This document shows positions 17,429 to 61,439 of a DNA stretch of 64,000 nucleotides, piece by piece. Source of the DNA: an uncultured Anaerolineaceae bacterium. GTDB taxonomy: Bacteria; Chloroflexota; Anaerolineae; Anaerolineales; E44-bin32. The notes beneath the pieces were generated by a model, which saw only the letters and a list, made by a program, of their open reading frames with translations, searched no databases and was not told the origin of the DNA. Both the position numbers and the translations under genes were made by a program. Numbering within the stretch: position 1 is the first letter of the stretch; each line of letters begins with the position of its first letter. The stretch is from the NCBI GenBank assembly GCA_964575425.1, contig CAZNRD010000008.1, forward strand, positions 3,161 to 67,160. Direction: 5' to 3'.

Positions 17429-18934
17429 TCAGTAGGCTCCCCGCCTCGTGAGCACAGCCGGTATCGTCCGGATTAGCAACTGAATATCGAACCAGAATGA
17501 GTAGTTGCGAATGTAGTACATGTCCATCCGGACCCGGTCATCGTACGAGACGTCCGAGCGCCCACTGACCTGCCACAGCCCTGTGATGCCAGGCTGGACA
17601 GTCAGCAGATTCAGGTCCCACTGACTGTACTTGCTGATCTCCTCTGGCGTGATCATTCGCGGTCCGACAAGCGACATCTCGCGGCGCAGGACATTGACCA
17701 GCTGCGGCAGTTCGTCCAGGCTGCTCCGGCGCAGGATGCGCCCAACCCTTGTCACCCGCGGGTCGTCCCTAAGCTTGTAATTCACCTGAAGCTCCCGCGC
17801 AAGGTCGGTGCAGCGCTGCAGGACAGCGTCGCTATCAACCCGCATCGTGCGGAACTTGAAGGCGTCAAACTGCCGCCCCCGCGCACCCAGGACGCGTCGG
17901 CGGTAGATGACCGGGCCTGGCGAGTCCAGCCGGATAGCAATGGCGATGATCGCCAGCAGCGGGGCAAGCACAATCAAGCCCGGCACCGTGATGACGTAGT
18001 CCAACACGAACTTCCCAAAGCGCTCAGCGCTCGTCAATCTCATCTTGTTAACACCGACCAGTGGCACTGTGCCTAGCTCACGCACCTGCAAGCCAGTGGT
18101 GATGATCTCAAACAGACCTGACGATAGCCGGAGATTCACGTGCTCTGAGACGCCGAATCGCTTGAAGGTCGATACGATCTCATCTCGAGTCAGAGCAGAC
18201 GTCGCCAGAATCAGCTCTTCCACCCCGTTGCGCTGGATCAGCTCGTCCAGGCCGCCCAATCCGGACAGCACGCGCAACTGCCTCAGCACAGGGGTTCCCT
18301 CGGGCACCCGATCATCCACGAACCCAAGCAGGCGCAGTCCGGAAGTTGTCCAACTCAGGAGCTGTTCCGCCAGCGCCTTCCCTTCCGGGCCAGCGCCGAC
18401 GATGATCGCCGGACTCAGAAACCACCCGACGCGCCGCAGGGCGTAGATCACGCGGCGCAGCCAGAAACGCCCCGAGGAGGTGAACAGGAAGATCAGCCCC
18501 CAACCAAGAACCAGCCAGCCGCGAGACACGAGGACCTGTCCGAAGAAGCCGGCTGACATCATCACCAGAACCCAGATCGTGGAGGCATTGAAGATCAACG
18601 AGTACTCACGCACTCCGCCCAGCAGATTGCCCCGCTGGTAGCCACCCAAGACGCCGACCAACAACATCCAGGCCGGGATGGACAGCAGCGCAAGCAACTG
18701 ATAGCCCTGCATCACTGGAGCAACGTCGATCTCAAAGATCGGCAGCGCCAACTCAAAGCGAAACCAGTAGGCAACACGTAGTGCCGCACTGACGAGCAGG
18801 GCGTCCATCAGGACAAGACCGACGATGAGGCCGCGCCATTGCCAGACAAGAGGCCACGTCAGGCGCGCCAGCCGCGGTTCCATGCGGGGAACCGTCTCCA
18901 CGAGTGCCTCAAACCCGGGAGCGGATGACTTCAT
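17429..18934 (-). CDS. Priming polyprenyl-phosphate glycosyl-1-phosphate transferase (WcaJ/WbaP-like)
   Basis: N-terminal TMs, CoA-binding-like segment, FKFRTM, DPRVTRVGRILRRSSLDELPQLVNVL, PGITGLWQVSGRS. Confidence 0.93.
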   Translation of the reverse strand: MKSSAPGFEALVETVPRMEPRLARLTWPLVWQWRGLIVGLVLMDALLVSAALRVAYWFRFELALPIFEIDVAPVMQGYQLLALLSIPAWMLLVGVLGGYQRGNLLGGVREYSLIFNASTIWVLVMMSAGFFGQVLVSRGWLVLGWGLIFLFTSSGRFWLRRVIYALRRVGWFLSPAIIVGAGPEGKALAEQLLSWTTSGLRLLGFVDDRVPEGTPVLRQLRVLSGLGGLDELIQRNGVEELILATSALTRDEIVSTFKRFGVSEHVNLRLSSGLFEIITTGLQVRELGTVPLVGVNKMRLTSAERFGKFVLDYVITVPGLIVLAPLLAIIAIAIRLDSPGPVIYRRRVLGARGRQFDAFKFRTMRVDSDAVLQRCTDLARELQVNYKLRDDPRVTRVGRILRRSSLDELPQLVNVLRREMSLVGPRMITPEEISKYSQWDLNLLTVQPGITGLWQVSGRSDVSYDDRVRMDMYYIRNYSFWFDIQLLIRTIPAVLTRRGAY

Positions 18935-34387: not shown

Positions 34388-35812
34388 TTAGCCGCTTGGC
34401 CTGACAAGACTCCGGAGCTGGCCCAACTCATTCCGGCTCACGACCCGCAGCAATGCCAGGAACACGGCATAGGCCGCCGCACTACCTGCGATGGCAACCA
34501 CGAGATTCACGTCGATGAGGAGAAGGACGACCACTGCCATCAGCAGGTTGGCAATCACCACGCGTCCGAGGAGCCAGGACATGCCGGTCAGCCCTAATTT
34601 CCGTGAGAGAAGCACAAAGAACGGCACCGCGGCCACCAGATCCGTCACAACCGTCACGATCGCGGCGCCGATAATCCCCAGGACGGGGATCAGCAGGAGA
34701 TTCAGCACGACGTTCGCGGCAGCGCTGGTGGCGTAGATCCTCGCTGCCGCCCGTTCCTCGCCGACCACTGTCGTCATGTTTCCACAGAAGCCAGCGAAGA
34801 GGAGAAGGGGCACATCCCAGACGATGATCTTGAAGACGGCTGCGGCCGGTAGGAACTCCGACGTGTACAAGGCCTCAATGAGAGGTTCGGCGATGAGCAT
34901 GCCGCCCACCGCTACAGGCACTCCGAGCAGTGCAATGATCCTCACCGAATGACGGTACCACACCTCAACCTGCCGGCTGTCCTGCACATAGGTTCTCGCA
35001 AGCGATGGCACCATCGCAACGCTGAACCCGCTCAACGCGAACGTGAGAGACTTCACCAAGCCATAGGCAGCGTTGTACCAACCCACGGCTTGCTCCGAGA
35101 CCAGCTTCGAAAGAACCACCGTGTCGAACCGGAACGTGACCGTCAGCGAGAGGGAGATGAACATGAATGGCAGACCCGACCGAACCAGTGCCGGCCATGA
35201 ACGCGGCGAGACGCGCGGCGGCGAGACAATGTAACCATTCCGCCTGACCACCAGGGCCGCAACCACCAACTGCGGCAGCATGGCCACTATTCCAATCCCA
35301 ACCAGTGCGATAAACCCCCATCCGAGGAGCAGGACGAGGGAGCCGAGGGCGACAAAGCTCACCTGTCCCAACACGGTGAGGGGCGCAACGACATCAAACC
35401 GTTCATGAGCCGTCAGGAGGGTCTCCAGCGGAGCTGTGAATGCCGAGAGAACAAATGTCCAGGTGTAGAGAAACACCCCCATGACGATGCCTGGCGAGTA
35501 GCCGACCCCCGTCGCGGCGAGTGTGATGGTGGCTATCCCAATCGCGGCGAGCACAAGCCGGACGGCAACCAGGTCCCAGAACAGCTGTCCGGCCTTGCTG
35601 CGGTCGCGAGCGATCTCCCTCATCACATACTGGGAGATCCCTAGCTCAGCGAAGATCTGGAACAGGCCGACGAAGGCCAGGACGATCGAATACTGGCCAA
35701 AGCGTTCGTCCCCAAGGCGGCGGACCACGAACACCCCAAACAGGAAGCTGACGGTCTTAAGCGCCAAGCCTCCGATCGTGACAAACGCCGTGTTTCGGGC
35801 GATTGTCCGCAT
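34388..35812 (-). CDS. wzx: Wzx-type oligosaccharide flippase
   Basis: About 12-14 TMs; RRLG-x-RFGQY, DLGIS-like ELGISQYVMRE, DTVVLS, VGWYNAAY, NLLLIPVLGIIGAA. Confidence 0.88.
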   Translation of the reverse strand: MRTIARNTAFVTIGGLALKTVSFLFGVFVVRRLGDERFGQYSIVLAFVGLFQIFAELGISQYVMREIARDRSKAGQLFWDLVAVRLVLAAIGIATITLAATGVGYSPGIVMGVFLYTWTFVLSAFTAPLETLLTAHERFDVVAPLTVLGQVSFVALGSLVLLLGWGFIALVGIGIVAMLPQLVVAALVVRRNGYIVSPPRVSPRSWPALVRSGLPFMFISLSLTVTFRFDTVVLSKLVSEQAVGWYNAAYGLVKSLTFALSGFSVAMVPSLARTYVQDSRQVEVWYRHSVRIIALLGVPVAVGGMLIAEPLIEALYTSEFLPAAAVFKIIVWDVPLLLFAGFCGNMTTVVGEERAAARIYATSAAANVVLNLLLIPVLGIIGAAIVTVVTDLVAAVPFFVLLSRKLGLTGMSWLLGRVVIANLLMAVVVLLLIDVNLVVAIAGSAAAYAVFLALLRVVSRNELGQLRSLVRPSG

Positions 35813-36190
35813 CAGAGAGACCCCTCTTGGTGGTCCGGTCCTGGACGGTTGCTGCACTCAGTCCTCCACGTTATGCCAGCGGCCTCCGGGCCTGGCCTCG
35901 GTGGCATCCACGCTCACGCCCCGGCGCAGGCCTCAGCCCCCATCTTGCGCAATCACTCCTTCATCAAAGATGGATCAAACCCTAATAAGTGCTGCCCCTG
36001 GATGAGAGCCGACCAGACACGAACCCCCGTGCTGGACCCCCCGGAGACCGGGACATGCACGCCTAGACGCGTCTGGAGCCAGCGTGCTACTCGCAACATC
36101 TCCCCTCTGCCTGTAAATCGCCAGCACCGCTCGCCACTTCATGCGTTCTCAACGTCGGCAGCCTGCGGCTCGCGCTCCCATTGAGCGCCC

Positions 36191-36450
36191 TCAGGGTGTC
36201 CGGTTGACCGCCTGGTCCACGAACCGGCGGAGCATCAGTTCGTCGGTCAGAATGGGTTCGACCTTGCCGATCGTCCAATTCCCAGTCCAGCAAGTTATCG
36301 ATCCATGAGGGATCGAAGGAAACCAGGATCGAACAGATTGCGTTCGGCTCTCTGGCCATCAAAGAGGATAAGCCCTCGGCCCACGACCGCTGGTCCGCTC
36401 GCAAGCAGATCCCCCACTCCGCATAGGCTGTTGTCCGCGCCGGCTCTTCG
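36191..36450 (-). pseudogene. Eroded 3' remnant of a second AsnB-like amide ligase gene
   Basis: Fragments in three frames (LRADQRSWAEG / ILFDGQRAERNLFDPGFLRSLMDR* / WTIGKVEPILTDELMLRRFVDQ) align by eye to the C-terminus of the intact 37882-39774 protein (LRGDLHAWAEDLLFSERALSRGLFRPDGVRSLW…VGKLGPLMSLELVMRRFVD). Confidence 0.7.
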
Positions 36451-36536
36451 CTGCACCATGGGTGACGAGGTGAATTCGCCAGCCATGGTCAGCACGATGC
36501 TCTGATCAGCACTCCAGACAGACTACGGTCCGAGAC

Positions 36537-37931
36537 TCAACGGGCCGAACCTGAGCGTGCGACTGCAGCCCGGCTCTGCTGATCCGAGGGGAAACCCTTC
36601 TGCGAAATGGTCTCGTCCGCTGTAAGTGCGCGTACGGTTGCGCCTAGCCGCATGTCCTGCATGCGGGCCAAGGCCGCTGCTCTCACACGCCCGCTCAACT
36701 TCGGAGCGGCGCGGTAGAGGCGCCACGCAAATCTCCACCACAGGCCGCGGGCACCCTGCCTTTGCAGCACTACCCAGGGGCGGGCAGAGCGGCCCCTAGA
36801 AGAGGGGGAGGGTGGCAGCGCCAGCGCCTGATGGCGGCGCCAGGCCAAGATCCTTGCCTCATCTCCCACAGAACGGCCGCTGCGGCCAGCGGCCTGGATC
36901 AACGACCGCACCAAACGCGCGTACGTTCCCTCGATCACAACGCGTCCTTCAGCGAGGGTGAAACCATGGCTGTGCAGGTCGGAGGCGAGGATCCCCCCAC
37001 AGTTGGCAACGAAATCCGGCACAACCATTACGCCGCGGGCGGACAGGCGCACCTCGGCGTCAGGAGTCACCGGTGCATTCGCGATCGGGACGATCCATCG
37101 AGCGCGAACACTCTCTACATTGCCCACATGGATCAGCCATGGCCGTGCCCCTGGGATAAGGACATCCACAGGTTGGCCTGGCAGGTCCGCAGGTTGGAAT
37201 CGAGTCGCGCCGACGACATGTTTCACGAGGCCGTCTCCGCACCGTTCCTTGAGCTCCAGCAGCCGGCCGATCTCCAGGCCGTTCTCAGCTGCAACCCCGC
37301 CTTCCACGGTCGTCAGGGCCGTCAGGCGGGCACCAGCCTGCAGCAGGAGCTGAGCGAGAGAGGCACCGACCTTGCCGAAGCCCTCCAATCCGACTCTCAA
37401 ACCGACAAGATCGACACCACTGGACTGGACCACCTGTCGGATGCACTCGAAGACCGTCAGAGCAGTGGCTGCAGAGCCGTCGATTTGGTCGACCGACAAT
37501 GGCTGGCCAGCCGCCGCCATGATCGTGCGCAGGTCATCCAGCGTGGTCCCGAGATCCAGTCCGGGGAGGAAGACCCGGTCCTTGATCAGGCCTGCAGTGG
37601 CACGGCCAAAGGCCTCCATCACCTGGTCACGGCGCGTGGTCATGGTTTGCACGTCCACGCTCAGACCAGCTTTTGCTCCTCCCATCGGAATGCTGAGCAA
37701 AGCCCATTTGAGCGTCATCGTACGCGCAAGTGCTGCCAGTTCACCCTCAGTGATCCCCGGTACCCACCGCACGCCGCCCGAGGCGGTCCCGTGGACTGTC
37801 CGATCGATGACAACGTGGCCCAGCAAGCCAAGACTGTCATCGGCAATCCGAATGGACCGCAGAGGGCCGGAATCGCCGCCGTCAGCCAAGGACGACACTC
37901 CGGGCGCTCTCCGCAGATGAGGTGTCGACAA
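36537..37931 (-). CDS. Glu/Leu/Phe/Val dehydrogenase family protein with atypical C-terminal extension
   Basis: GGVRW, MTLK, GGAKAG, DLGT, GFGKVG, DVLIPGA, PIANAP, VPDFVANCGG; start uncertain. Confidence 0.82.
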   Translation of the reverse strand: MSTPHLRRAPGVSSLADGGDSGPLRSIRIADDSLGLLGHVVIDRTVHGTASGGVRWVPGITEGELAALARTMTLKWALLSIPMGGAKAGLSVDVQTMTTRRDQVMEAFGRATAGLIKDRVFLPGLDLGTTLDDLRTIMAAAGQPLSVDQIDGSAATALTVFECIRQVVQSSGVDLVGLRVGLEGFGKVGASLAQLLLQAGARLTALTTVEGGVAAENGLEIGRLLELKERCGDGLVKHVVGATRFQPADLPGQPVDVLIPGARPWLIHVGNVESVRARWIVPIANAPVTPDAEVRLSARGVMVVPDFVANCGGILASDLHSHGFTLAEGRVVIEGTYARLVRSLIQAAGRSGRSVGDEARILAWRRHQALALPPSPSSRGRSARPWVVLQRQGARGLWWRFAWRLYRAAPKLSGRVRAAALARMQDMRLGATVRALTADETISQKGFPSDQQSRAAVARSGSAR

Positions 37932-39774
37932 AGCGGCGCATGACGAGCTCGAGGCTCATCAAGGGTCCGAGCTTGCCCACCAAGTTGTGCTCGCGGCCCG
38001 CCTGCAGGCGTCTCCACAGTGACCGGACGCCGTCTGGGCGGAAGAGCCCCCGACTGAGAGCGCGTTCGCTGAAGAGCAAGTCTTCCGCCCAGGCATGCAG
38101 GTCCCCTCGCAGCCAGCTCTCGTAATCCGAGTGCAGCGGAAAGTACTCGGGAAAGACTCTTGCTGCACGCCGATTGATGTACGCCTTGGCGCGCTTGACC
38201 ATTCGGGCGCCAAGCCGAATCGGTGAGTGATTGGTCGCCGGGAGCTCGTCCTTGTCATACGGGATGATTGCCAGGTGGCGCATCGAGTTCCACATGATCG
38301 CCTTGCGCAATCGGCGATCGCGGAGCATCTCTGGAGGAAGGGCGTACACGAAGTCGAAGTACTCGTAGTCATAGAACGGGAACCTCTGCTCGATCCGCCA
38401 ACGCCGGAACACGGTGTAGTAGAGGAAGAGCCGACGGTCGGGATTCTCTAGCGCGAAACTGACCACGCGTTGGGAATGCGGCAGGTGAACATACGGGACT
38501 AGCGCTTCACGGAGCGAAGCCAGGGCATAGCCTCGAAGCGTTCTTCGGATCTCGGGCTGGTAGACACTGTCCTCTTCGGCCTCGGTCAGTGACGGCCAGG
38601 TGGTCTTCTCAACCAGCATGGCAAAGAGGCGGGAGGCAAGCGCGTCATCGTCGCACACAGCAAAGATTGATGGATCGCCCCAGTCGAGCGCCGTGTGCCC
38701 ACCTCCGAATCCGCTCAGGTCAACCTCCATCCATTGCCGCGCAGCCTCGAGGACGCTGATTCCATGGGCATGCACCCAGGTGTGAAAGCCCTCGGTCAGG
38801 GCCGTGTGCAATCCGTGATACGCCAATACCCACCTTCCGTCCACGAATGGCAAGGCATGATGATCGCTACCTGCCCTCCTGGCAACCGCGGCGGCATAGA
38901 CCATGTCTCGGCAGTCTGGAATCCCATAAGTGACCGTTGGCACGCGGCGCCCTGTTTCGGACGCCATTCCCAGAAGGACACGGGAGTCCAACCCGCCACT
39001 CAAAAACACTCCGATGCGCTCCCTGCCGTCCAAACGTCGGCGTACTGCCTGCCTGAGCCTCCGTTCCGCCTCCTCGGCAGCCTCCTCGAATCTCAAGCCG
39101 GCGGGGAGGCGAGGTATCCGTCCAATGCCCCAGTAGCGTGTCAGCGTCAGCCGCGTCTCGCGAAGATCGTAGCCCAGGAGGCTGGCGCTCGGCAGCAATC
39201 GCACATCCTCGAAAAAGGTCCTGTCTCCCAGTAGGTGCTGAAACCTGACGTACTCTGCCACGGCTGCCATGTCCAACTTGCGCACGAATCGAGGGTCGCT
39301 CAGGACGGCGTTCATCTCCGGGCCGAAGGAGAAGGTGCCGTCCCGCAGCGCGTAGTACATCGGGTAGAGACCGAAGCGATCGTTCCCGAGGATCAATCGA
39401 TGCCGGCGGGCGTCCCAGATCGCCACCTGAAAGGCACCATTCATCCACTTGAGGAACTCGTCACCATGCTGTTCGTACAGGGACAGCGCGTAATCCTCTG
39501 GACGCCAGCGATGGCCCTTGGGAGGGCGCCCCTCAAACTGGAAGAGCTCGCCGGCCATGAAGAGCGCAACTGTGCGATCGTCCGACCAAACTGGTTGGGG
39601 TTCACGATTGAATATCCCTATCCCGACGCGCCCGAGGCCCACACCTTCCTGCAATTGAACGAAGGTGTCGCAAGTCATCTCCTGCCCATGCGCCAGAGCG
39701 GCTGACATGCGGCCGAGCAATTCACCCACCTCGCTCGCACGCTCCGGGGAGACAAGCCCGAAGACGCCGCTCAT
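37882..39774 (-). CDS. Asparagine-synthetase-like amidotransferase/amide ligase with degenerate glutaminase domain
   Basis: MSGVFG start (Cys replaced by Ser), DRFGLYPMYY, FLSGGLDSR ATP-binding motif, RFPFYDYE. Confidence 0.88.
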   Translation of the reverse strand: MSGVFGLVSPERASEVGELLGRMSAALAHGQEMTCDTFVQLQEGVGLGRVGIGIFNREPQPVWSDDRTVALFMAGELFQFEGRPPKGHRWRPEDYALSLYEQHGDEFLKWMNGAFQVAIWDARRHRLILGNDRFGLYPMYYALRDGTFSFGPEMNAVLSDPRFVRKLDMAAVAEYVRFQHLLGDRTFFEDVRLLPSASLLGYDLRETRLTLTRYWGIGRIPRLPAGLRFEEAAEEAERRLRQAVRRRLDGRERIGVFLSGGLDSRVLLGMASETGRRVPTVTYGIPDCRDMVYAAAVARRAGSDHHALPFVDGRWVLAYHGLHTALTEGFHTWVHAHGISVLEAARQWMEVDLSGFGGGHTALDWGDPSIFAVCDDDALASRLFAMLVEKTTWPSLTEAEEDSVYQPEIRRTLRGYALASLREALVPYVHLPHSQRVVSFALENPDRRLFLYYTVFRRWRIEQRFPFYDYEYFDFVYALPPEMLRDRRLRKAIMWNSMRHLAIIPYDKDELPATNHSPIRLGARMVKRAKAYINRRAARVFPEYFPLHSDYESWLRGDLHAWAEDLLFSERALSRGLFRPDGVRSLWRRLQAGREHNLVGKLGPLMSLELVMRRFVDTSSAESARSVVLG

Positions 39775-39902: not shown

Positions 39903-41252
39903 CTAGGCATGCCATCCTTGGAGGCGGAGGACTCGCTCGAGCACGGACAACACCTGTCGGGGAAGCCCGGCGGTGTCCATCCCCGAGGCGGCCAGGATCG
40001 CCAAACAGGGGAACGCAGGCAGCGAGTAGCGAGTGCCACCATAGGTGACCAGGCTCACGGCAAGCAAGGTGACCTGCGGCAGGATCAGGATGGCCGCCTG
40101 CCACGCCTGCCCACACAGAAGGAGGCGCCGGATCCCCAGAGCGACGAGCCCCCAGAACAGCACGGTACCAAGCAGGACCGCGATGAACGCGACCGAGGGC
40201 AGGCTCACCACCCCGGAGATGCTGAACGCCAGCGGCCACAAGAAACGACCTGCCTTGGCCGGGAGCAGAACCGCGAAGGCAGTCGGGTTGTCGGAAATCC
40301 ACGAGCGGGCGCGCTGGGAGAACTCGCGCTGGCTGTCCACCTCGCTCATGCCCGGCAATACATACGGCCCAGACCAGACAAAGCCACCGTCCGCCTGGGG
40401 GTTGTTCCCGCCGTACAAGTTGATGCCTGCGCTTGTGGTGAGAGGAACAAAGGCGTGGAAGACCCGCGCGTTCCGGACCACCCACGGAGCCAGCATGCCT
40501 GCCAAGAGTACGAAAGGGAGCAACGCAACGACGATCCGACGGTTGATCCTCTTCTCCCGGGGCCAGTACCTCCAGGCAAAGCACAGGCACATTGCACCGG
40601 CCAGGATCGCTAGGCTGGGCTTGAGGTATAGGCCAATGCCAAGAGCGGCCGCCATGGCTGCTCCCGCTGCCCCTCGCAAGCGCCCGGAGAGCAAGGCGAA
40701 CTCCGCCTCCGTCACACATCCGATAGCCAGCGTCTCGGGGTAGACCGAGATTGAGGTGGCGATCAGGATTGGGTTCACGGCAACGAATGCTGCGGCCACC
40801 ACGGCGATCGTCGGGTTCGCAGTAAGCCGCTTCGTCATGACGTAGACCGAGGCCACGACGATCGCGTCGACCAAGATCTGCACGACCTGGACGGCAAGCG
40901 GATGGGAGCCGACGGCATCCAATGCCGCCAGGACCATCGGGTATCCCGGCATCCGATATGCCGTCGCTGTTCCTCCATCGAAACGGAAGACCCCGGAGGC
41001 CAAGTTCCTCGCCAACTGAACGTAGTCAAGCGCGTCGCCACCTTCGACCAGTCGCAGCAGTTGGGGGATCCGCGCATAGAGGCTCAGCGCGACCAGCCGG
41101 GCAAATGACCCCAGGCTGATCAGCAGGCCGAGGATCAAGAGACTCGCGCGACCTTCCGCCCGAGTTCGAAATGAGCTTTGGGCATCCACCACGTCACCTG
41201 TCACAAAGCCCTTGCCACCCCCGGCGCGGATCGCTTGAAGCATTGCTTCCAC
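39903..41252 (-). CDS. GT-C (ArnT/PMT-like) membrane glycosyltransferase
   Basis: GDALDYVQLARNL…TAYRMPGYP, PETL, many TMs, GTRYSLP; start uncertain. Confidence 0.7.
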   Translation of the reverse strand: MEAMLQAIRAGGGKGFVTGDVVDAQSSFRTRAEGRASLLILGLLISLGSFARLVALSLYARIPQLLRLVEGGDALDYVQLARNLASGVFRFDGGTATAYRMPGYPMVLAALDAVGSHPLAVQVVQILVDAIVVASVYVMTKRLTANPTIAVVAAAFVAVNPILIATSISVYPETLAIGCVTEAEFALLSGRLRGAAGAAMAAALGIGLYLKPSLAILAGAMCLCFAWRYWPREKRINRRIVVALLPFVLLAGMLAPWVVRNARVFHAFVPLTTSAGINLYGGNNPQADGGFVWSGPYVLPGMSEVDSQREFSQRARSWISDNPTAFAVLLPAKAGRFLWPLAFSISGVVSLPSVAFIAVLLGTVLFWGLVALGIRRLLLCGQAWQAAILILPQVTLLAVSLVTYGGTRYSLPAFPCLAILAASGMDTAGLPRQVLSVLERVLRLQGWHA

Positions 41253-41258
41253 CGCCCG

Positions 41259-42815
41259 CTAAGGGACGTACGCGTAGAGGTATCTTGGATATCCATGATC
41301 CCAGCGCTTTGGAAGCGGGCGCAGCGAGGCAAACCGATCGCCGAAGTCTTCGACGAGCTGGTAGTGACCTTGCAGGAAAGCCAACCACGGATACGTGTCT
41401 AGCGGGACATGGGCCAGAATGTACGCAGGCCCGTGCGGTTCGAGAACCGGTGCCAGAAGCCTGCGGGTTGTCGGGTGGTCGCGTGTGTCACGCCCTGGTC
41501 CACGGATCATGTCTTCCAGCGCAACCCAATGGGCGGCGGGAAAGAGGGTGAAGTCCTGGCTGAACTGCCCAATCGTGGGCGCGTAGACCGGGCCGTTCAA
41601 GCCTCGCAGCGTGACAAGAAGGTCCTGGTAGGCCTCACGCGCATCTGCAGGGATCATGTAGCGGGATGGGTTGTAGAGAAGGAGCGAGAAGCTGGCAGCC
41701 AAACCAAGAAGCTGTGCAGATTGCATCCCCCGCCGCGGCAACTCCGTCGTCATCTCCGCCAGGGCCATGGTGCCAGTGACAATGAGCCAGGTCCCCATCG
41801 GAATGTAGACGTTGTTGGAGGAACCAGGGTCGAGGCTGCCAAGAAGACCTGTGAGGAGTGCGAAGAAAAGCTGCCAGTGCCAGATATCCGTGGCCTGTTT
41901 CGTCCGTCGCGCTCGCCAGTACACCATCCCCAGGGCCGCCGCAGAAAGGAACCCGTAATTGCACAGGACAAACGCCGCCGGCCGAAGGAGGGTCCACCGG
42001 GTGAAATCCGTCCACTGGCTGGGATCCTCCCACGTGAAGTAGTGAAACGCTGGGCCGAACACAGACGGTCCGACAACGAGGTAGGTGACTGGACCAAGCA
42101 GAATGGCCAGAAGCCAAGACGGAACGGACGCGCGAAAGCCCTTGCGCCATGTCAGGTAGAGTACGCCGCCGACTGCAAATAAGGCTCCGTGCTGTTTGAA
42201 CCAGAACGAGGCCACAAGCAGAAGAGTGCCCAGCAAGCAGCACAGCCGGGAGCGATCGCGGGTCATCAGACTCGTCCCAAGCAACGCAGAAAAGAGCATC
42301 CACGAGTCGGAATGGGCGCTGTCGAGATACGCATCCATCGCAGCATAGCCTGCGGCGAACAGGCCCGTCGCCACCAGTCCCCACTTACGCGAGCGGGTCC
42401 GGGCGGACACAGCCCAAAAGATCACCAACCCACAACCGATCGTTCCCAGAATCGCCACGATGCGAAGCGTTGGTAGAGTGACGCCCAGGATCCATCCGAA
42501 GGGGCTGGACAGCACGTAGTAGAGGGGATTGTAGGCGAGCGGAACGTAGCCCGGCTCCGGCTCAGGGTAGATAAGCTGGAAGGATGCCGCCCGCTGGAAG
42601 TGCTGCCAGACGACCCCCTCCATCAGATCGAGGTGTAAGGGGAACCAGGTGTGGTTCGCCCACAGGAAGACGAGGCACAGGATGGAGAGGCTCGACCAGG
42701 CGACAAGACCAGAGAACGCAAAAGCGGAATCTTTGCTCCGGCGCCGCGACCAATGGCGGTCAACTTGCAACAGGAGCACCGTGACAGCGACGGGTGCCAA
42801 TCGTGCGAGTATCAT
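41259..42815 (-). CDS. GT-C-like polytopic membrane protein
   Basis: DLMEG loop, YNPLYY, HSDS, WFKQ, many TMs, C-terminal soluble domain. Confidence 0.6.
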   Translation of the reverse strand: MILARLAPVAVTVLLLQVDRHWSRRRSKDSAFAFSGLVAWSSLSILCLVFLWANHTWFPLHLDLMEGVVWQHFQRAASFQLIYPEPEPGYVPLAYNPLYYVLSSPFGWILGVTLPTLRIVAILGTIGCGLVIFWAVSARTRSRKWGLVATGLFAAGYAAMDAYLDSAHSDSWMLFSALLGTSLMTRDRSRLCCLLGTLLLVASFWFKQHGALFAVGGVLYLTWRKGFRASVPSWLLAILLGPVTYLVVGPSVFGPAFHYFTWEDPSQWTDFTRWTLLRPAAFVLCNYGFLSAAALGMVYWRARRTKQATDIWHWQLFFALLTGLLGSLDPGSSNNVYIPMGTWLIVTGTMALAEMTTELPRRGMQSAQLLGLAASFSLLLYNPSRYMIPADAREAYQDLLVTLRGLNGPVYAPTIGQFSQDFTLFPAAHWVALEDMIRGPGRDTRDHPTTRRLLAPVLEPHGPAYILAHVPLDTYPWLAFLQGHYQLVEDFGDRFASLRPLPKRWDHGYPRYLYAYVP

Positions 42816-50667: not shown

Positions 50668-51792
50668 CTACAGGCTTTCCCAGGCCATGCCGCGCAATGC
50701 AGAGAGCGACCGATCACGGCGTGCTCCATACGCGATCGTCTTGCGGTCCAGTATCTGTGCAATGCGCAGCGCGGCCGTGCCGTCCCCGTACACCGGCGGT
50801 CTCCACGTCGGTGGCCGGAACGTTGTCCACGCCTCCAGCGCCACCTCCGGCGTCGTTCCCACGAGCTTATTCCAGCCCGCGGAGACGGTTGCCACCCATT
50901 CGGTCTCCTCGCGCAACGTCAGGCACGGGACTCCCAAGAAGTAGGCCTCCCGCTGCACACCACCTGAGTCGGTTGCGATGAGGCGGGCGTTCTCCTCCAA
51001 CACAAGCATGTCAAAGTAGCTCAACGGCTCCAGGGGCCGGATGTGCGCCCCGAGGTCCATCCCCAGGTGGTCCAGCGCCAGGCGCGTCCTCGGGTGGAGC
51101 GGCAGGATGATCGGCTCTCGCACGCGGTTTAGCGTTTCCACGATCCGGCCCAGGCGGATGGCGTCATCGGTGTTGGCCGCCCGGTGAATGGTCACCAGCG
51201 AGTAGGCGCGCGGCCGCACGTCGAGTCGATCCAGCATCCCCGATTGCCTGCGCGCCAGTGGCAGGAAGGTCATCAGCGCATCCAGCATCACATCGCCCAC
51301 CCAATGGACGCTGTCCCTGATCCCTTCCTCCGTCAAGTGTTGCACGGCGGCGCGGCTGGCACAGAAATGCACATCCGCCAACGCGTCAGCCACCAGCCGA
51401 TTGATCTCCTCCGGCATGCGCCGATTGAAGCTCCTCTCCCCGGCTTCGAGGTGGGCCGTCGGGATGTGAGCCTTGGCTGCCGCCAGTGCTCCGGCCAGGG
51501 TCGAGTTCGTGTCGCCGCGCACAATGACCAGATCGGGCGACTCCTTGCGCAGCACCTCTTCAAGGCCCACCAGCATTCCGGCTAGCTGCTGACTGTGCGA
51601 TCCCGATCCCACACCCAGGTTGTAAGCGGGTGGAGGGATCTCCAGTTCGTCGAAGAAGGTCTGCGACATGAGGTAGTCGTAGTGCTGGCCAGTATGCACC
51701 ACGATCTCCTCATGCCTGCCCTGCAGCGCCCTGCTCACGGGCACGCATTGGACGAATTCCGGCCGCGCCCCAACGATGGAGACGATTCTCAC
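50668..51792 (-). CDS. Non-hydrolysing UDP-N-acetylhexosamine 2-epimerase (WecB/WbpI-like)
   Basis: GARPEF, HTGQHYD, GDTNSTLA, HLEAGERS, MPEEINR, TDSGGVQREA. Confidence 0.93.
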   Translation of the reverse strand: MRIVSIVGARPEFVQCVPVSRALQGRHEEIVVHTGQHYDYLMSQTFFDELEIPPPAYNLGVGSGSHSQQLAGMLVGLEEVLRKESPDLVIVRGDTNSTLAGALAAAKAHIPTAHLEAGERSFNRRMPEEINRLVADALADVHFCASRAAVQHLTEEGIRDSVHWVGDVMLDALMTFLPLARRQSGMLDRLDVRPRAYSLVTIHRAANTDDAIRLGRIVETLNRVREPIILPLHPRTRLALDHLGMDLGAHIRPLEPLSYFDMLVLEENARLIATDSGGVQREAYFLGVPCLTLREETEWVATVSAGWNKLVGTTPEVALEAWTTFRPPTWRPPVYGDGTAALRIAQILDRKTIAYGARRDRSLSALRGMAWESL

Positions 51793-53008: not shown

Positions 53009-54049
53009 CTAGGCGGGCGCAATCGGCATCATCGCCGGACGAAGGTCGCGGGGCTCCCGACCGCCGTGGTGGGCTGCATCCCTGAGCCGCTGCAATACCT
53101 CACGCCGTATCGCAGTTGCCAGGAGCAGGGCCCGCTTGCCCTCGTTGGCCGATACCACCGGCTGCCTGTTGTCCAGGACGCAGTCGACGAAATGCTGCAG
53201 CTCGGAATACAGCGGTTCCTGGGTCGGGACGTGGATGCCTTCCAGGATGCTCTCCTGGCGATACTTGATTCCACGCTGGTTGTGATTCAGGTACTCAGCC
53301 GTTGTCCGACGATGAACCGCTATGCTCTTGTTGAGCAAGTCGGCCTCTACATAAGCCTCCAGGGCAGTCACCTCTATGGAGCGGATCTTCTGCTCGGTGA
53401 CACGCGAGGCGGTCATCGTCACCAACGGCCCGGCGCCAAAGCCAAGGTGGACCACTGCGTGATCGATGTCGCCGTCGTGCGCCGTGAGGCCAAAAGCGCT
53501 GAACGAGTCGGGTTCCTGCCCGGTGAGATCAAGGGCAAGGTCGATGTCGTGGATCATGAGGTCCAGTACAACGTCAACGTCGTGGTTGCTGCCTCCGAAG
53601 GCGCTCAGCCGCCGCATCGCGATCGCCAGCGGAGTCTTGTCCTCAAGGACGTTCTTGAGTTCTGTGTAGGCCGGGTTGAACCGTTCGATGTGCCCAACCT
53701 GCAAGATGACCCCGGCCGAGGCGGATGCCTCTGCCAGCGCGTCCGCTTGCTCGATCGTCTCGGCCAGCGGCTTCTCCACCAACACGGGGATCCCTCGTTG
53801 GACGCACGTCATCGCAAGATCGAAATGGACTGGCGTGGGCGTGGCTAAGCTTACCGCCTCAACCTCTGCCAGGAGGCTATCCACACTGGGGAACGCCACC
53901 ACCTCGTACCGTGCGGCGATTTCCTCCGAGAGGTTCGGGACAAGGTCGTACACGCCAACGAGCTGCGCCCTCCGCAAGGTCGAGAAGACGCGGCAGTGCT
54001 GCTGCCCCATTCGCCCAAGACCGATCACGCCTACGCGCAATTGCTCCAT
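53009..54049 (-). CDS. Gfo/Idh/MocA oxidoreductase (WbpB-like UDP-GlcNAcA 3-dehydrogenase candidate)
   Basis: GVIGLGRMG, VLVEKPLA, VGHIERFNPA, DLMIHDID. Confidence 0.85.
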   Translation of the reverse strand: MEQLRVGVIGLGRMGQQHCRVFSTLRRAQLVGVYDLVPNLSEEIAARYEVVAFPSVDSLLAEVEAVSLATPTPVHFDLAMTCVQRGIPVLVEKPLAETIEQADALAEASASAGVILQVGHIERFNPAYTELKNVLEDKTPLAIAMRRLSAFGGSNHDVDVVLDLMIHDIDLALDLTGQEPDSFSAFGLTAHDGDIDHAVVHLGFGAGPLVTMTASRVTEQKIRSIEVTALEAYVEADLLNKSIAVHRRTTAEYLNHNQRGIKYRQESILEGIHVPTQEPLYSELQHFVDCVLDNRQPVVSANEGKRALLLATAIRREVLQRLRDAAHHGGREPRDLRPAMMPIAPA

Positions 54050-54084
54050 GGCGCTCCTCCTGCTGCCACCAGACAAGGCACCGA

Positions 54085-55191
54085 CTAAGCGGCGCCAACA
54101 TCCGCCTTGCGGATGTTCTCCATCGCCGTCACCACAGCCTCTACCACCCGGTCCAGGTCCTGTTGGTTGAGCGAAGGATGGACAGGCAGTGACATGACTT
54201 CCCGGCTTGCCTTTTCGCTCTCAACCAGATCTGCGCCCGAACCCATCCACTGGTAGGAGGGCTGCTGAGGGATAGGTGCCGGATAGTACACGCCCACGGC
54301 GACCCCCTGTTCGATGATGAGTGGCACCAACCGGCCCCTGTCCTGGACTCGGATGGTGTATTGGTGGAACACATGCTCGGCGCCTCGCCGAACGCGCGGT
54401 GTCACCACCCCGGGGATGTCCCGCAGGCGCTGTGTGAGGTAGGTCGCGTTTGCTTGCCGTTGCGTGTTCCACGTCTTGAGCTTGGGAAGCTGCGCCAAGC
54501 CGATGGCCGCCTGGAGATCGGTCATGCACATGTTGTAGCCGAGCATCTCGTGAACATATCGTCGCTGGCTGCCATGTTCCCGGAGCATTCGGGCGCGCTC
54601 CGCCACAGCCGCCTCGTTCGTGACGATCATGCCGCCTTCTCCGGTCGTCATGTTCTTGGTGGCATAGAAGGAGAAACAGGCCGTGCCGTATTCGCCTACC
54701 CGCCGACCGTTCAGCGTCGCACCATGCGCCTGGCATGCGTCCTGGATCACGACCAGGTGATGCCCTCGGGCGATCTCGCAGATTGCTTCCATGTCGCACA
54801 TTTGCCCATACAGATGAACCGGCACAATAGCCCGCGTGCGCGGGGTGATCCGTGACTCCACGTCGGAGGGGTCGAGGGTGAAGGTGTCTGGCTCTATGTC
54901 GGCAAATACCGGGCGGGCACCCACGAAGCGTGCGCAGTCGGCCGAGGCGATGAAGCTGAACGCTGGCGTGATCACCTCGTCTTCCGGCCCAATACCATGC
55001 GCCAGCAGAGCCACATGCAGCGAGCACGTCCCGGATGTCAGGGCGATGGCATACTCCGCCCCCACGTAGGCTCCAAAACGCTCCTCAAACTCGCGAACCC
55101 TCGGACCGTGGGCAAGCTGCCCCGACTCGAGCACTGCCAGAAGGCCGGCTTTCTCTTCCTCGCCGATTTGTGGACGCGAGATCGGTATCAT
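54085..55191 (-). CDS. DegT/DnrJ/EryC1/StrS aminotransferase (WbpE-like)
   Basis: ATGA overlap; PVHLYGQ, DACQAHGA, SFYATKNMTTGEGG (PLP lysine), HVFHQYTIR. Confidence 0.93.
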   Translation of the reverse strand: MIPISRPQIGEEEKAGLLAVLESGQLAHGPRVREFEERFGAYVGAEYAIALTSGTCSLHVALLAHGIGPEDEVITPAFSFIASADCARFVGARPVFADIEPDTFTLDPSDVESRITPRTRAIVPVHLYGQMCDMEAICEIARGHHLVVIQDACQAHGATLNGRRVGEYGTACFSFYATKNMTTGEGGMIVTNEAAVAERARMLREHGSQRRYVHEMLGYNMCMTDLQAAIGLAQLPKLKTWNTQRQANATYLTQRLRDIPGVVTPRVRRGAEHVFHQYTIRVQDRGRLVPLIIEQGVAVGVYYPAPIPQQPSYQWMGSGADLVESEKASREVMSLPVHPSLNQQDLDRVVEAVVTAMENIRKADVGAA

Positions 55192-55775
55192 GAGTTCCCT
55201 CCTGGCTGGAAGGTCCAGCCATCCTGCGGGCAGCGATAGCCTCCTGCGCCTTCGGGTTCTAGCCGGCGGCCGCAGCGGCACACGTACCCGACGTCACGGG
55301 CCGGTACCCCGACAACGAGCGTATGATCCGCCACGTCACGAACGACGACGGAACCCGCCGCGACCATCGCAAACCGGCCTACAGTCACACCCGGCAGGAT
55401 CAACGCGCCCGCTCCAATCGACGCACCATATCGAATCAGAATCGGCTCCACGGTCCAGTCATTGGCCGACTTGAGCACTCCCTCGGGCGTGATCGCCCGG
55501 GGATAGGTGTCGTTTGTCAGACATGCTTGTGGCCCCAGGAATACACCGCTTTCAACTGTCGCGCCGTGATAGACAAGGGCACTGTTTTGAATCTTGACGT
55601 TGTCGCCAATCGTCACGCCGACGTCGATGTAGACATCCTTGCCGATGATGCACGTGTGTCCGATCCGTGCCCCTTCGCGAACTTGAGCGCGGTGCCAGAT
55701 CGAGGTGCCCGGCCCAACCTCTGCGTCAGGCGAAACGTCGGCAGACGGATGAATGCGCGCAGTCGGATCTATCAT
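55188..55775 (-). CDS. Hexapeptide-repeat N-acetyltransferase (WbpD-like)
   Basis: IHPSADV, GDNVKIQN, FLGPQACLTND-x-YPR, GASIGAGA, VVGVPAR. Confidence 0.9.
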   Translation of the reverse strand: MIDPTARIHPSADVSPDAEVGPGTSIWHRAQVREGARIGHTCIIGKDVYIDVGVTIGDNVKIQNSALVYHGATVESGVFLGPQACLTNDTYPRAITPEGVLKSANDWTVEPILIRYGASIGAGALILPGVTVGRFAMVAAGSVVVRDVADHTLVVGVPARDVGYVCRCGRRLEPEGAGGYRCPQDGWTFQPGGNS

Positions 55776-57669: not shown

Positions 57670-59280
57670 CTAGTCGCCCGCCTGCCAGCGCAGGTGCTGC
57701 AGACCCACGCTCAGTGCGGTTCTGAACGTTGAGCGGTCAAAGAGGAGCATCTTGAGGTAGGTGAACGCCGGACCAGGCCTGAGGGCCCACTCCCGGAACG
57801 CCCGTTTCTGCCAGTAGAGAAGTCGCTCAGCCGAGAGCCCTGGGTAGTCAAGTACCGTCTCTTTGTCCATATCCACCTGCTCCCAGCGAGTGCCTTGCCG
57901 GAACCAGCCGTTCTTCACCACCTCAAAGAAGAAGGGGGTGCCGGGATGGGGCGCTGCTACATGGAACAGGGCAATGTCGAGCGGAAGCTCCTTGGCGAAC
58001 CGGATCGTCTGGCGGATGGATTCCTCCGTCTCCCCGGGGAGCCCGACGATGAAATAGCCCCAGTTCCGGATTCCGGCCTTCTTCGCCCAGCGGAGGGCAC
58101 GTCCTACTTTCGCGGGATTGGTGCCCTTGCGGGCGCGCTTCAGGATCTGCTCGTCCCCGCTTTCGATCCCCCACGAGATGTACCAGCAGCCGGACCTGCC
58201 CATCAGCTGCAGCATCTCCTCGTCGACATAGTCCACCCGGCTGTTACAGGTCCAGCGGATGTCGATGCCGGAGTCGATGATCCGCTGGCATAGATCGACC
58301 ACCTGATCCCTGTTGACGGTGAACAGGTCGGCGTACATGTGGATGTTGCTGATCCCCAGGCGCTTGAGCTGCCAGAGTTCCTCCATGATGAGCTGCGGGG
58401 ATCGCAGACGTACGCTGTACTGGTAGTTGACGTGCTTGATGCAGAAAATGCAGCCCGCCGGGCAGCCACGGCTGGTGACAATGAAGGTGAACGGTCCCTT
58501 CATCAGAGGCATGCGGTACTTCTGCAGCGGCAGCAGATCGTGCCGCGGGACGGGCAGGCCGTCGAGATCGGCAATGAATGGCCGCGCGGCGTTGACCACG
58601 ACCTCGTCGCCACGTCTCCAGACCAGTCCTTTGATACCTGCCAGATCCACCGTGCCGGCCGCGTCGATCGAAGGCCTGTACTCGGCATCGTGGTCGGCGA
58701 ACAGTCGGCACAGGGACTCGTCGCGCTGGTCGATTCTCCCCTCCAGGTGATCTAGCAGGTCGCGGAGCGTGAGCTCCGGCTCACCCAGCAGGATGTAGTC
58801 CAGGCTGGGATACGGACGCATCGTCTCCCTCGGGATGGGGGTGACATGCGTCCCGAAGGCGATCGTCCGCGCCCCGCAAGCCTTGGCCAGGAAAGTTCCA
58901 TACATGTCGTTTTCAAGGGTCGGTGCCGTCACCTGGGTCAGGTAGTACTTGGGTCGATGAGCATCAAGCAGGCGAGCGAATTCCGGCCATCCCATCCGCT
59001 CAGCGTTCGCATCGATGACCTTGACCGTGTACGTGGGGGTTAGCATCGCCGCCAGCTGGGCCAGAGAGACCTGAGGCCATACCATGTTCTCGCGAGTTCG
59101 CCTTCCGACGCGGTGCTGGCATCGAATCCACAGGTCACCGTCCGGCGTCGGCGGGTTGACGAGCAGGACGTCCACCTTCTCAGCGGACGCCGCCGACCGG
59201 CTAATCCCTTGCCGAACAATCTCATCCGCATCGGCGAAGTCCGCCATGCGCAACCTCGGCACCCGCCGGGAGCCCATGTT
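57670..59280 (-). CDS. Cobalamin-binding radical SAM protein (HpnJ/BchE-like)
   Basis: B12-binding region (LAQLAAML…VIDAN…FGTHVT), SRGCPAGCIFC, GIESG, GYFIVGLPGET, PHPGTPFF. Confidence 0.88.
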   Translation of the reverse strand, partial: NMGSRRVPRLRMADFADADEIVRQGISRSAASAEKVDVLLVNPPTPDGDLWIRCQHRVGRRTRENMVWPQVSLAQLAAMLTPTYTVKVIDANAERMGWPEFARLLDAHRPKYYLTQVTAPTLENDMYGTFLAKACGARTIAFGTHVTPIPRETMRPYPSLDYILLGEPELTLRDLLDHLEGRIDQRDESLCRLFADHDAEYRPSIDAAGTVDLAGIKGLVWRRGDEVVVNAARPFIADLDGLPVPRHDLLPLQKYRMPLMKGPFTFIVTSRGCPAGCIFCIKHVNYQYSVRLRSPQLIMEELWQLKRLGISNIHMYADLFTVNRDQVVDLCQRIIDSGIDIRWTCNSRVDYVDEEMLQLMGRSGCWYISWGIESGDEQILKRARKGTNPAKVGRALRWAKKAGIRNWGYFIVGLPGETEESIRQTIRFAKELPLDIALFHVAAPHPGTPFFFEVVKNGWFRQGTRWEQVDMDKETVLDYPGLSAERLLYWQKRAFREWALRPGPAFTYLKMLLFDRSTFRTALSVGLQHLRWQAGD

Positions 59281-59323
59281 CTCTTCATGTCTGTCCAATT
59301 GCGATGCGCTCACATCGACCTCT

Positions 59324-60520
59324 CTATACCGCGGCCATATCCTTCTTGATCATAACACTTCGCTGACTCAGTTCCTCCAACACCCGCATCAAGACCCAGG
59401 ACAACATGAGCTGAATGCCAACCAGGACAAGCAGAGCACTGCCTAGCAGATACAACCACAGTCTGGCAATGTCCCAACCCGATACCCCCAGGCCCAGGCT
59501 GACACCGGCGACCGTCAACCCAACGGCCAGGACAAGGGCCCCCATCCAGCCGAAGTGGTGATCCAGCGACGGATTGAACAGCGGACGGCCAAACAGGCCT
59601 TGCCGGACCGGAGTCTGGTAGAAGAGGGTCACCAAGTAGTTGAAGGTCGAGCCCAGCGCAAACACACTGATCCCCCCCACTGCCGCCACCAACGCGCCGA
59701 ACAGCGAGGCGACCCCCCAGGGACCGAGCGTTGTCACACCGCTCAGCCGGAGCGCAACCAGGGCCGCACCGACACCTGCCGCAAACAACATGCCGGCCAC
59801 GCCGATCCAACCAAGTATCCGCACCGGGTTGTAGCTCAACGCCGTCCACAGGATGGAATGCAGAAACACCGACCCATCTCGGATAACGCTCAGCTTGGAC
59901 CGGCCAACCCGCTCACTGTACGGGATAGGCGTCTCCGCCATGCGCAGGTTCTCGTGGACCGCCCGGGTGCTCATCACCGGGGTGAGGTTGAGGCCATCCG
60001 GCAAGGGGTAGAGCCGCTCCAGGATGCTCCGTTTGAAGACCCGCATCCCACTGGCGCTGTCGCTGACGCGCTGGGCTCCAACGACAGAAAGCAGCGCGGC
60101 GAAGAACAGGTTCCCAAGGCGTCGTGTCAAAGGCATTTTGGATGCCGCGCCGGCCATGCGCGAGCCGATAGCCAAGTCTGAGCCATTCATCACCAGCCGA
60201 CAGAGCTCGGGAAAGTACTCCGGGGGATATGTGCCATCGGCGTCTAAGAAGCCGATCAGCTCTCCCCGCGCCCAGGAGAACCCCGTCTTGAGCGCTGCCC
60301 CGTAACCTCGGTTGCGAGGGTGGCGAATCAGTGTGACTCCTTCTACGGCTGCCGCCACCTCCGCCGTGCGGTCACATGATCCATCATCGACGATGAGCAG
60401 CTCCAGGCAGTTGATGCCAATCTCGGCCAGGCGATCGCGCGTCGCAAGCACTCGCCGGGCAATGTCGGCAATTCCACGTTCTTCGTTGAACGCCGGGATA
60501 ACAACCGAGAAGTCCGTCAT
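59324..60520 (-). CDS. GT2 polyprenol-phosphate glycosyltransferase with C-terminal TM helices
   Basis: ATG after GGAGGAG; [43 protein letters not shown]; C-terminal TMs. Confidence 0.88.
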
Positions 60521-61362: not shown

Positions 61363-61439
61363 GCTCCGCCCTTCCGACAAGACGGGATGACCGATGAAAT
61401 GCTTTGGCGTGGGTCTTCGGGCGGCTCGCGTGCTCGGCG

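Follow-up and report, generated by a model that had tools for sequence, protein, structure and literature searches.

A ligase gene and a dehydrogenase gene overlap in an Anaerolineaceae glycan cluster

We analysed a stretch of 64,000 nucleotides (hereafter the window) from contig CAZNRD010000008.1 of an uncultured Anaerolineaceae bacterium (assembly GCA_964575425.1). Within the window, two overlapping genes on the minus strand encode a predicted AsnB-like ATP-dependent ligase and a predicted amino-acid dehydrogenase of the ELFV family (Table 1). In public data the two genes carry the labels 'asparagine synthase (glutamine-hydrolysing)' and 'glutamate dehydrogenase', both of which are mis-annotations. 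As judged from the sequences and their neighbourhoods, the pair is probably a candidate module for decorating a glycan with amides. The host assembly comprises 3.43 Mb in 181 contigs and is 94% complete; its nearest relatives by protein similarity are metagenome-assembled genomes of Anaerolineae/Caldilineaceae.

The most likely start of the dehydrogenase is GTG 37898, preceded by GGAGAG and identical with the database start, within an open reading frame (ORF) spanning 36537-37931. From this start the gene overlaps the ligase gene by 17 nucleotides, and from the alternative TTG at 37931 by 50 nucleotides. The reading frame of the ligase is open upstream of its ATG to TTG 39861, a stretch that holds no Cys.

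The ligase family has lost the residues for glutamine hydrolysis

The ligase contains the Pfam domains GATase_7 (1.4e-15) and Asn_synthase (4.5e-25). Its best NCBIfam matches are TIGR03108 (2.1e-43, 149 bits), which covers residues 1-359 only, and TIGR01536 (147.3 bits), and it remains below the cut-offs of both families (816.9 and 267.1 bits, respectively). An AlphaFold2 (AF2) model computed from 48 sequences reached a predicted local distance difference test (pLDDT) score of 89.7 and a predicted template modelling score of 0.90. The top Foldseek matches of this model were TsnB9 (7ylz; 3.7e-23), AsnB (1ct9; 1e-18), beta-lactam synthetase (BLS) and CarA.

More than 900 relatives of the ligase were found in the database, and the best 120, being 41-55% identical over their full length, were taken for alignment. 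Nearly all of them begin with MSG[VI]FG. At position 2, the site of the N-terminal nucleophile (Ntn) Cys1, 111 of 115 relatives carry Ser, two Gly, one Asn and one Thr, and none carries Cys. The position of Asn74 in AsnB is Ala in the window's ligase; the relatives have Ala (59), Ser (42), Thr (6) or Cys (5) there, and never Asn. R49 is retained in 115 of 118 relatives, and G75 and E76 in each of the 118. The PP-loop LSGGLDS is intact in the window's ligase and essentially invariant among the aligned relatives. Together with R49 and E76, Asp98 holds the alpha groups of glutamine in AsnB; its column is occupied by D in 98 of 120 relatives, and the window's ligase reads P-E-D there. The HRGPD motif of AsnB is replaced by AHGQE, at a site where the family consensus is SHR(E/D)W.

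A sequence-only reading of the locus had described the enzyme as glutaminase-dead, pointing to a Ser at the Ntn nucleophile position (MSGVFG), to the absence of HRGPD and NGEIYN and to an intact ATP motif SGGLDS. These observations hold, the absence of Cys1 and Asn74 extends across the whole family, and no alternative start provides an N-terminal Cys. Because both residues are missing family-wide, their absence represents an old, fixed and evolved trait rather than a lesion. The Gly or Asn found at position 2 in a few relatives further speaks against an essential nucleophilic role of the Ser. As judged from its residues, the ligase lacks both chemical requirements for glutamine hydrolysis, an activity that we do not expect of it, and the conservation of the remaining N-domain pocket indicates that this pocket is under selection. 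With respect to the class II (Ntn) glutamine amidotransferases and AsnB, the enzyme departs in Cys1, in Asn74 and in its score against TIGR01536, and agrees in its PP-loop and two-domain fold. The C-terminal half of the ligase is long and diverged; HMMER aligns only residues 1-313 and 460-498, so that the residues of the AsnB aspartate site could not be mapped.

The dehydrogenase keeps its catalytic residues and lacks the glutamate-binding lysine

Both ELFV Pfam domains (PF02812 and PF00208) were detected in the dehydrogenase above their gathering scores (58.5 vs 25.3 and 112.3 vs 23.4 bits; E-values of 3.9e-32 and 7.3e-16 for the two domains). Some 90 relatives (44-58% identity) match the dehydrogenase in length and possess its C-terminal extension; 88 of these were aligned. 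The alpha-carboxylate Lys64 (MTxK) and the catalytic Asp115 are retained in 88/88 and the catalytic Lys76 (GGxK) in 86/88, and the GFGKVG NAD(P) loop is intact. A different picture emerges at the position of K89 in glutamate dehydrogenase (GDH; C. symbiosum numbering), the Lys that holds the gamma-carboxylate. Here, 71 of the 88 relatives have Ser, as does the window's enzyme, 12 have Ala and none has Lys. In line with this, the dehydrogenase misses the cut-off of every GDH equivalog tested (NF040817, NF041398 and PRK09414; e.g., 133.7 vs 750 and 124.2 vs 620).

The sequence-only reading had recognised the overlapping downstream gene as an ELFV dehydrogenase with its catalytic lysines, which our alignment bears out. 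It had also reported a GKP...GR..ATG segment as missing; this segment is in fact present in diverged form, since AGQPLSVDQIDGSAATALTV matches TGKPLSIGGSLGRGTATAQGA of the Thermococcus GDH column for column. The GxPL segment has diverged, having lost its Arg, and is preceded by an 8-residue deletion. An AF2 model of the dehydrogenase (pLDDT 91.5) shows that the conserved tail, residues ~370-433, consists of two long helices (370-397 and 404-433). Foldseek places the core closest to hexameric GDHs, at 25-28% identity. On the strength of these residues, we regard the protein as an active-looking amino-acid dehydrogenase that is predicted not to serve glutamate.

The same residue states could be read in terms of side-chain ligation. 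The ligase would then activate an omega-carboxylate, either of Asp/Glu or of a 2-oxo-dicarboxylate, and join it to an amino sugar, the dehydrogenase would interconvert the pendant alpha-amino/alpha-keto end, and the exchange of K89 to Ser would accommodate the substituted side chain. In favour of such a scheme, AsnB itself works by side-chain activation, the dehydrogenase has the alpha-carboxylate Lys without the gamma-carboxylate Lys, and the cluster makes amino sugars, as judged from a WbpE-like gene. However, the scheme is speculative throughout, the relevant region of the synthetase domain is unalignable and provides no residue evidence for Asp/Glu binding, and we know of no glycan enzyme pair that works by side-chain ligation plus a dehydrogenase. 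We consider this explanation quite unlikely.

In its genomic distribution, the dehydrogenase depends on the ligase, but not vice versa

Conservation of the pair was surveyed from both sides, using 48 ligase loci from species-representative genomes and a metagenome scan for the dehydrogenase, which yielded 80 loci, 15 of them at at least 44% identity and all of these on short contigs. A dehydrogenase homologue (43-52% identity, tail included) adjoins the ligase in 9 of the 48 genome loci. Conversely, an AsnB-like gene adjoins the dehydrogenase in 13 of the 15 metagenome loci, and the other two dehydrogenases abut a contig end. Combining the genome and metagenome sets, which may overlap each other, the two genes are adjacent in 22 of 24 other loci, with the remaining two cut by the contig. 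Both gene orders occur (15 loci with the dehydrogenase first, 8 with the ligase first), and in every case the genes share a strand and lie near each other.

A maximum-likelihood tree of 55 ligases places 9 of the 10 dehydrogenase-adjacent ones, including that of the window, in one clade of 15 rows with a support of 100/99. Five genomes harbour a ligase of the same clade without an adjacent dehydrogenase, and genome-wide these contain only ordinary GDH-like genes of 29-36% identity. The dependence is one-sided: no informative locus had a close relative of the dehydrogenase without the ligase, but members of the ligase clade also occur where the dehydrogenase is absent. A search of 400 sampled genomes of the phylum returned no match to the dehydrogenase at E <= 1e-60. 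Thus, the dehydrogenase is a rare accessory and the ligase a widespread core gene.

The pairing is far beyond chance, and the genomic record strongly supports a functional coupling of ligase and dehydrogenase. The coupling proposed in the sequence-only reading therefore stood in the co-occurrence search, with the amendment that it is asymmetric. The opposite view would be that the dehydrogenase is a housekeeping enzyme of the GDH or leucine dehydrogenase type that neighbours the ligase by coincidence and has no functional link to it, and Pfam indeed sees an ordinary ELFV architecture. This view has to contend with the adjacency in all but the contig-cut loci, with the overlap of the two genes, with the failure to find the family in the sampled genomes of the phylum and with the ordinary GDH-like genes that related genomes carry elsewhere. 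We give it next to no credence, as the co-occurrence data effectively refute it.

Variants of the arrangement were also observed. Locus L004 (924-3483) has two tandem dehydrogenase copies, 51% and 47% identical to that of the window, ahead of the AsnB-like gene. In the window itself, the decayed C-terminus of a second AsnB-like gene follows the dehydrogenase (Table 1); tblastn of 120 family members against positions 35800-36700 gave 374 matches, e.g., ILFDGQRAERNLFDPGFLRSLMDR*LAGL / WTIGKVEPILTDELMLRRFVD. Locus L050 keeps the order ligase-dehydrogenase-ligase intact, and this order was probably the ancestral one. A 573-residue public metagenome gene call (P0182) at first resembled a natural fusion of the ELFV and GATase domains, but proved to be a frameshifted dehydrogenase tail read into MSGVFG. 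Being an artefact of assembly or gene calling, it counts as adjacency only, and no other fusion of dehydrogenase and ligase was found.

The pair is embedded in polysaccharide clusters

From ~14 kb to 63 kb of the window, nearly all genes lie on the minus strand and form one large polysaccharide cluster (Table 1). WbpB-, WbpE- and WbpI-like genes are located 11-15 kb upstream of the AsnB-like gene in the same orientation, and the presence of WbpB- and WbpE-like genes suggests that the window's glycan contains a 2,3-diamino uronic acid. The flanks of the 48 related ligase loci contain homologues of family 4 glycosyltransferases (GT4) in 35, of a flippase in 30 and of Wzy in 17 cases. Recurring neighbours are a Wzz/tyrosine-kinase-like protein, GT4, flippase, family 2 glycosyltransferase (GT2) and Wzy, with the order Wzz/kinase, ligase, GT4, flippase. 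The ligase is thus a core gene of Wzx/Wzy-type glycan clusters in Anaerolineae-like Chloroflexota.

Amidation of a glycan carboxylate, as suggested in the sequence-only reading, fits this setting, given the flippase beside the pair and the WbpB/E/I-like genes in the cluster, an arrangement reminiscent of wbpS in Porphyromonas gingivalis. Its further suggestion, that the dehydrogenase recycles glutamate and 2-oxoglutarate for WbpB/E, is rejected, because the K89 position is never Lys and because none of the 22 other paired loci has any DegT or Gfo/Idh homologue in its flanks.

We also considered that the ligase might not act on a glycan at all, but be a Cys-less AsnB-type cyclase of peptides or small molecules, of the lasso-cyclase or BLS type, that lies in a glycan region by chance. 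Cys-less AsnB homologues are typical of such pathways, NCBIfam gives weak matches to a lasso cyclase (2.3e-31) and a macrolactam cyclase, and BLS and CarA appear among the structural matches. However, the score against the lasso cyclase family NF033535 is 109.1 bits with a cut-off of 525 bits, and the surroundings hold no recurrent precursor-peptide, protease or transporter genes and no genes for ribosomally synthesised and post-translationally modified peptides or for carbapenems. Instead, GT4, flippase and Wzy recur around the ligase in most of the 48 loci. Moreover, the N-domain pocket residues are conserved in the ligase, unlike in BLS and CarA, where we take them not to be conserved. A role outside glycan synthesis appears very unlikely.

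Further features of these loci were noted. For the two long ORFs directly upstream of the pair, Pfam and NCBIfam gave no match. In the closest metagenomic locus (L051), homologues of ORF 41259-42815 and of the dimethylformamidase-like gene adjoin the ligase-dehydrogenase pair. Upstream of the AsnB-like gene, ~10 related loci share the window's block of B12-radical-SAM, membrane GT2 and hexapeptide acyltransferase genes, which belongs to a conserved glycan-cluster backbone of Anaerolineae. Seven loci that lack the dehydrogenase (L005, L009, L018, L023, L041, L044 and L046) have a GNAT protein of the Acetyltransf_6 family adjoining the AsnB-like gene. The mutual exclusivity of GNAT and dehydrogenase at the AsnB-like gene is not statistically significant at these numbers; the neighbourhood recalls the WbpS and VimA pairing of the Wbp/Vim pathway.

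Table 1 Genes and other features of the window around the ligase-dehydrogenase pair.
Feature	Position	Strand	Remarks
AsnB-like ATP-dependent ligase (predicted), 630 aa	37882-39774	-	ATG start preceded by GAAGAGGCGAAGG; reads MSGVFG
ELFV-family amino-acid dehydrogenase (predicted), 453 aa	36537-37898	-	GTG 37898 start; 464 aa if TTG 37931
Second AsnB-like gene, decayed C-terminus	36212-36369	-	In-frame stop and frameshift; between dehydrogenase and flippase
Wzx-type flippase (Polysacc_synt)	34388-35857	-	Next intact gene downstream of dehydrogenase
GT4, GT2 and Wzy genes			Beyond flippase in cluster order
Initiating sugar transferase	17429-18934		Polysaccharide cluster
Two long ORFs	39903-41252, 41259-42815	-	Directly upstream of pair
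UDP-GlcNAc 2-epimerase family gene, WbpI-like	50668-51792	-	
Gfo/Idh oxidoreductase, WbpB-like	53009-54076	-	Same orientation as pair, upstream
DegT aminotransferase, WbpE-like	54085-55281	-	Same orientation as pair, upstream
B12-radical-SAM / membrane GT2 / hexapeptide acyltransferase block	57670-61380	-	
GT2; FAD amine oxidase; PMT_2 protein; dimethylformamidase-like protein; acyltransferase-3/SGNH protein			Other cluster genes

Distant relatives of the dehydrogenase adjoin other ligase folds

A basic helical tail of the same kind is seen in more distant dehydrogenase relatives (30-42% identity), which likewise occur in glycan clusters. In 12 loci they lie directly beside an adenylating ligase of the PaaK/F390-synthetase type, a protein for which Pfam gave no match whereas NCBIfam recognised it (DVU_1553 family, 5.6e-42). 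Four loci have the dehydrogenase relative beside an ATP-grasp enzyme and 13 beside an S-adenosylmethionine (SAM) methyltransferase, and in five loci a UDP-sugar 6-dehydrogenase and a GT4 follow immediately downstream. Ligases of the PaaK/F390 type and of the ATP-grasp class join carboxylates to amines.

Five such metagenomic loci (L093, L102, L104, L113 and L117; at ~4.6-9 kb in each) combine, in this order, a PaaK/F390-like ligase, the ELFV-like dehydrogenase, in some cases an ATP-grasp enzyme, a UDP-sugar 6-dehydrogenase and a GT4. L102 additionally encodes a pyridoxal-phosphate (PLP) decarboxylase of the ornithine/diaminopimelate type and a 4Fe-4S protein. This arrangement looks like another amino-acid-related glycan-tailoring module. 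A putative FemAB-like neighbour (ORF 4 of L093) gave no Pfam match.

The host genome holds a second tail-bearing ELFV-like gene in another glycan cluster (contig C5, 109413-110504; L135:8255-9712, minus strand), which shares 36% identity with that of the window and 57% with its ELFV-like counterpart in metagenome locus L065. Its neighbours are a SAM methyltransferase, a flippase, an initiating sugar transferase and Wzy; two apparent ORFs upstream of it look like reverse-frame artefacts and were set aside.

A candidate module for glycan amidation

The observed facts are the residue states and folds, the conserved adjacency with its one-sided dependence, and the glycan setting; acceptor, donor and the direction in which the dehydrogenase works are inferred as follows. 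The ligase would activate a carboxylate by ATP-dependent adenylation at its PP-loop site, having given up glutamine as nitrogen source. Most likely, it would amidate a sugar carboxylate, as WbpS and WbqG do, the target in the window probably being a diamino-uronic acid of the Wbp type. The dehydrogenase would act as its dedicated accessory and catalyse the NAD(P)H-dependent reductive amination of a 2-oxo acid other than 2-oxoglutarate. The resulting L-amino acid would then serve as the amine nucleophile that the ligase joins to the activated carboxylate, yielding an amino-acid amide decoration. A ligase of the same clade without the dehydrogenase would presumably use free ammonium or a common amino acid. 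Tentatively, and with somewhat less than even confidence, we favour this combination of a WbpS-like, glutamine-independent, amide-forming ligase on a glycan carboxylate with a dehydrogenase that makes its nitrogen donor.

The nitrogen donor is more likely to be an amino acid, i.e., a substituted amine, than ammonia. This preference rests on two observations: the pocket of the dehydrogenase has moved away from glutamate, and its relatives partner three unrelated carboxylate-amine ligase folds. Ammonia supply nevertheless deserves consideration. Here, the ligase would make a primary uronamide, and the dehydrogenase, nearby or docked, would release ammonia oxidatively from an amino acid and thereby replace the glutaminase. 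The closest characterised relatives (WbpS, WbqG and PGN_1234) yield primary amides, the N-domain is still conserved despite the lost glutaminase chemistry, and the ligase occurs without the dehydrogenase in five genomes, as expected if free ammonium suffices. In addition, the structured and conserved helical tail seen in the model of the dehydrogenase could dock on a partner. On the other hand, loss of the glutamate-binding lysine would be odd if the aim were to deaminate the most abundant amino acid, and the PaaK-like and ATP-grasp ligases beside which relatives of the dehydrogenase occur are not known to require ammonia. Equilibria of ELFV dehydrogenases also favour amination, and the only apparent fusion of dehydrogenase and ligase was a frameshift artefact. 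All in all, ammonia supply seems improbable to us. A stricter version would be a redox-driven 'amidotransferase', in which the tail-docked ELFV enzyme deaminates oxidatively and passes ammonia into the surviving tunnel of the Cys-less synthetase, in place of the glutaminase domain. We judge this to be slightly more doubtful still, and the evidence leans to supply of an amino acid over such channelling.

Several points weigh against an amino-acid donor or a uronic-acid acceptor. R49 and E76, which bind an amino acid in the N-domain, are under strong selection, and this is left unexplained by the amino-acid-donor proposal. Since no dedicated dehydrogenase is needed for proteinogenic amino acids, such a donor would have to be unusual or scarce. 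Among close ligase orthologues, some are accompanied by the dehydrogenase and others are not (L004 vs L005), a contrast that a common metabolite such as ammonia as donor fits at least as well and explains more easily. On the acceptor side, the substrate-binding part of the synthetase domain (residues ~320-460) is unalignable to AsnB, so that the acyl substrate cannot be read off the sequence. Moreover, the three UDP-sugar 6-dehydrogenase genes of the host genome all lie outside the window.

Relation to known systems and implications

In P. gingivalis, the AsnB-like gene wbpS adjoins wbpE and wzx, and its product converts a uronic acid to the uronamide, as does WbqG (PMC7468200). WbpS of P. aeruginosa, WbqG of E. 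coli O121 and PGN_1234 of P. gingivalis resemble the window's ligase in their AsnB-type two-domain organisation and in being encoded in glycan clusters beside wzx and Wbp genes. Compared with this type (eps_aminotran_1, TIGR03108), the window's ligase has Ser for Cys1 and Ala for Asn74, a longer and diverged C-terminal half and a dedicated dehydrogenase partner. With AsnB (1ct9) and the hydroxyamidotransferase TsnB9 (7ylz) it shares the fold, the PP-loop SGGxDS and the equivalents of R49, G75 and E76, whereas it lacks their Cys nucleophile and oxyanion Asn and cannot be aligned in the aspartate-binding region.

The dehydrogenase has the ELFV fold, the Lys/Lys/Asp set and GFGKVG in common with hexameric GDHs (Thermococcus profundus, 1euz/8xcp) and with Leu, Phe and Trp dehydrogenases. 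Beyond the low identity noted above, it differs from the GDHs in the Ser at K89, the deletion before the GxPL segment and the extra two-helix C-terminal tail of ~70 residues, and in always being ligase-adjacent in glycan clusters.

For the division of labour that we propose, a precedent exists in Campylobacter jejuni HS:2, where the amine-donor enzymes Cj1436 and Cj1437 are encoded beside the glucuronate amidoligase Cj1438C (PMC11800397). The HS:2 set (Cj1438C, Cj1436/Cj1437 and Cj1435) follows the same logic of a ligase with adjacent donor-making enzymes, a likeness drawn here at the level of logic. There, a PLP transaminase and a decarboxylase provide serinol phosphate and ethanolamine phosphate, whereas in the window an ELFV dehydrogenase would provide an alpha-amino acid. 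Full-text literature searches for polysaccharide clusters with an ELFV dehydrogenase or a Cys-less AsnB returned nothing relevant.

Uronic acids of O-antigens, capsules and archaeal N-glycans commonly carry amide or amino-acid decorations. To our knowledge, few enzymes are known to install them, namely the WbpS type, which yields primary amides, and the Campylobacter amidoligase, which attaches amino alcohols. The pair described here is a sequence-recognisable, conserved and experimentally tractable candidate for glycan amidation in the little-known envelopes of Anaerolineae-type Chloroflexota. The recruitment of ELFV dehydrogenases beside three unrelated classes of carboxylate-amine ligases in glycan clusters suggests a wider rule. 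If confirmed, this rule would give annotation pipelines reason to drop both labels, and it would represent a new enzyme logic for glycan tailoring, in which a dedicated reductive amination feeds an amide ligase.

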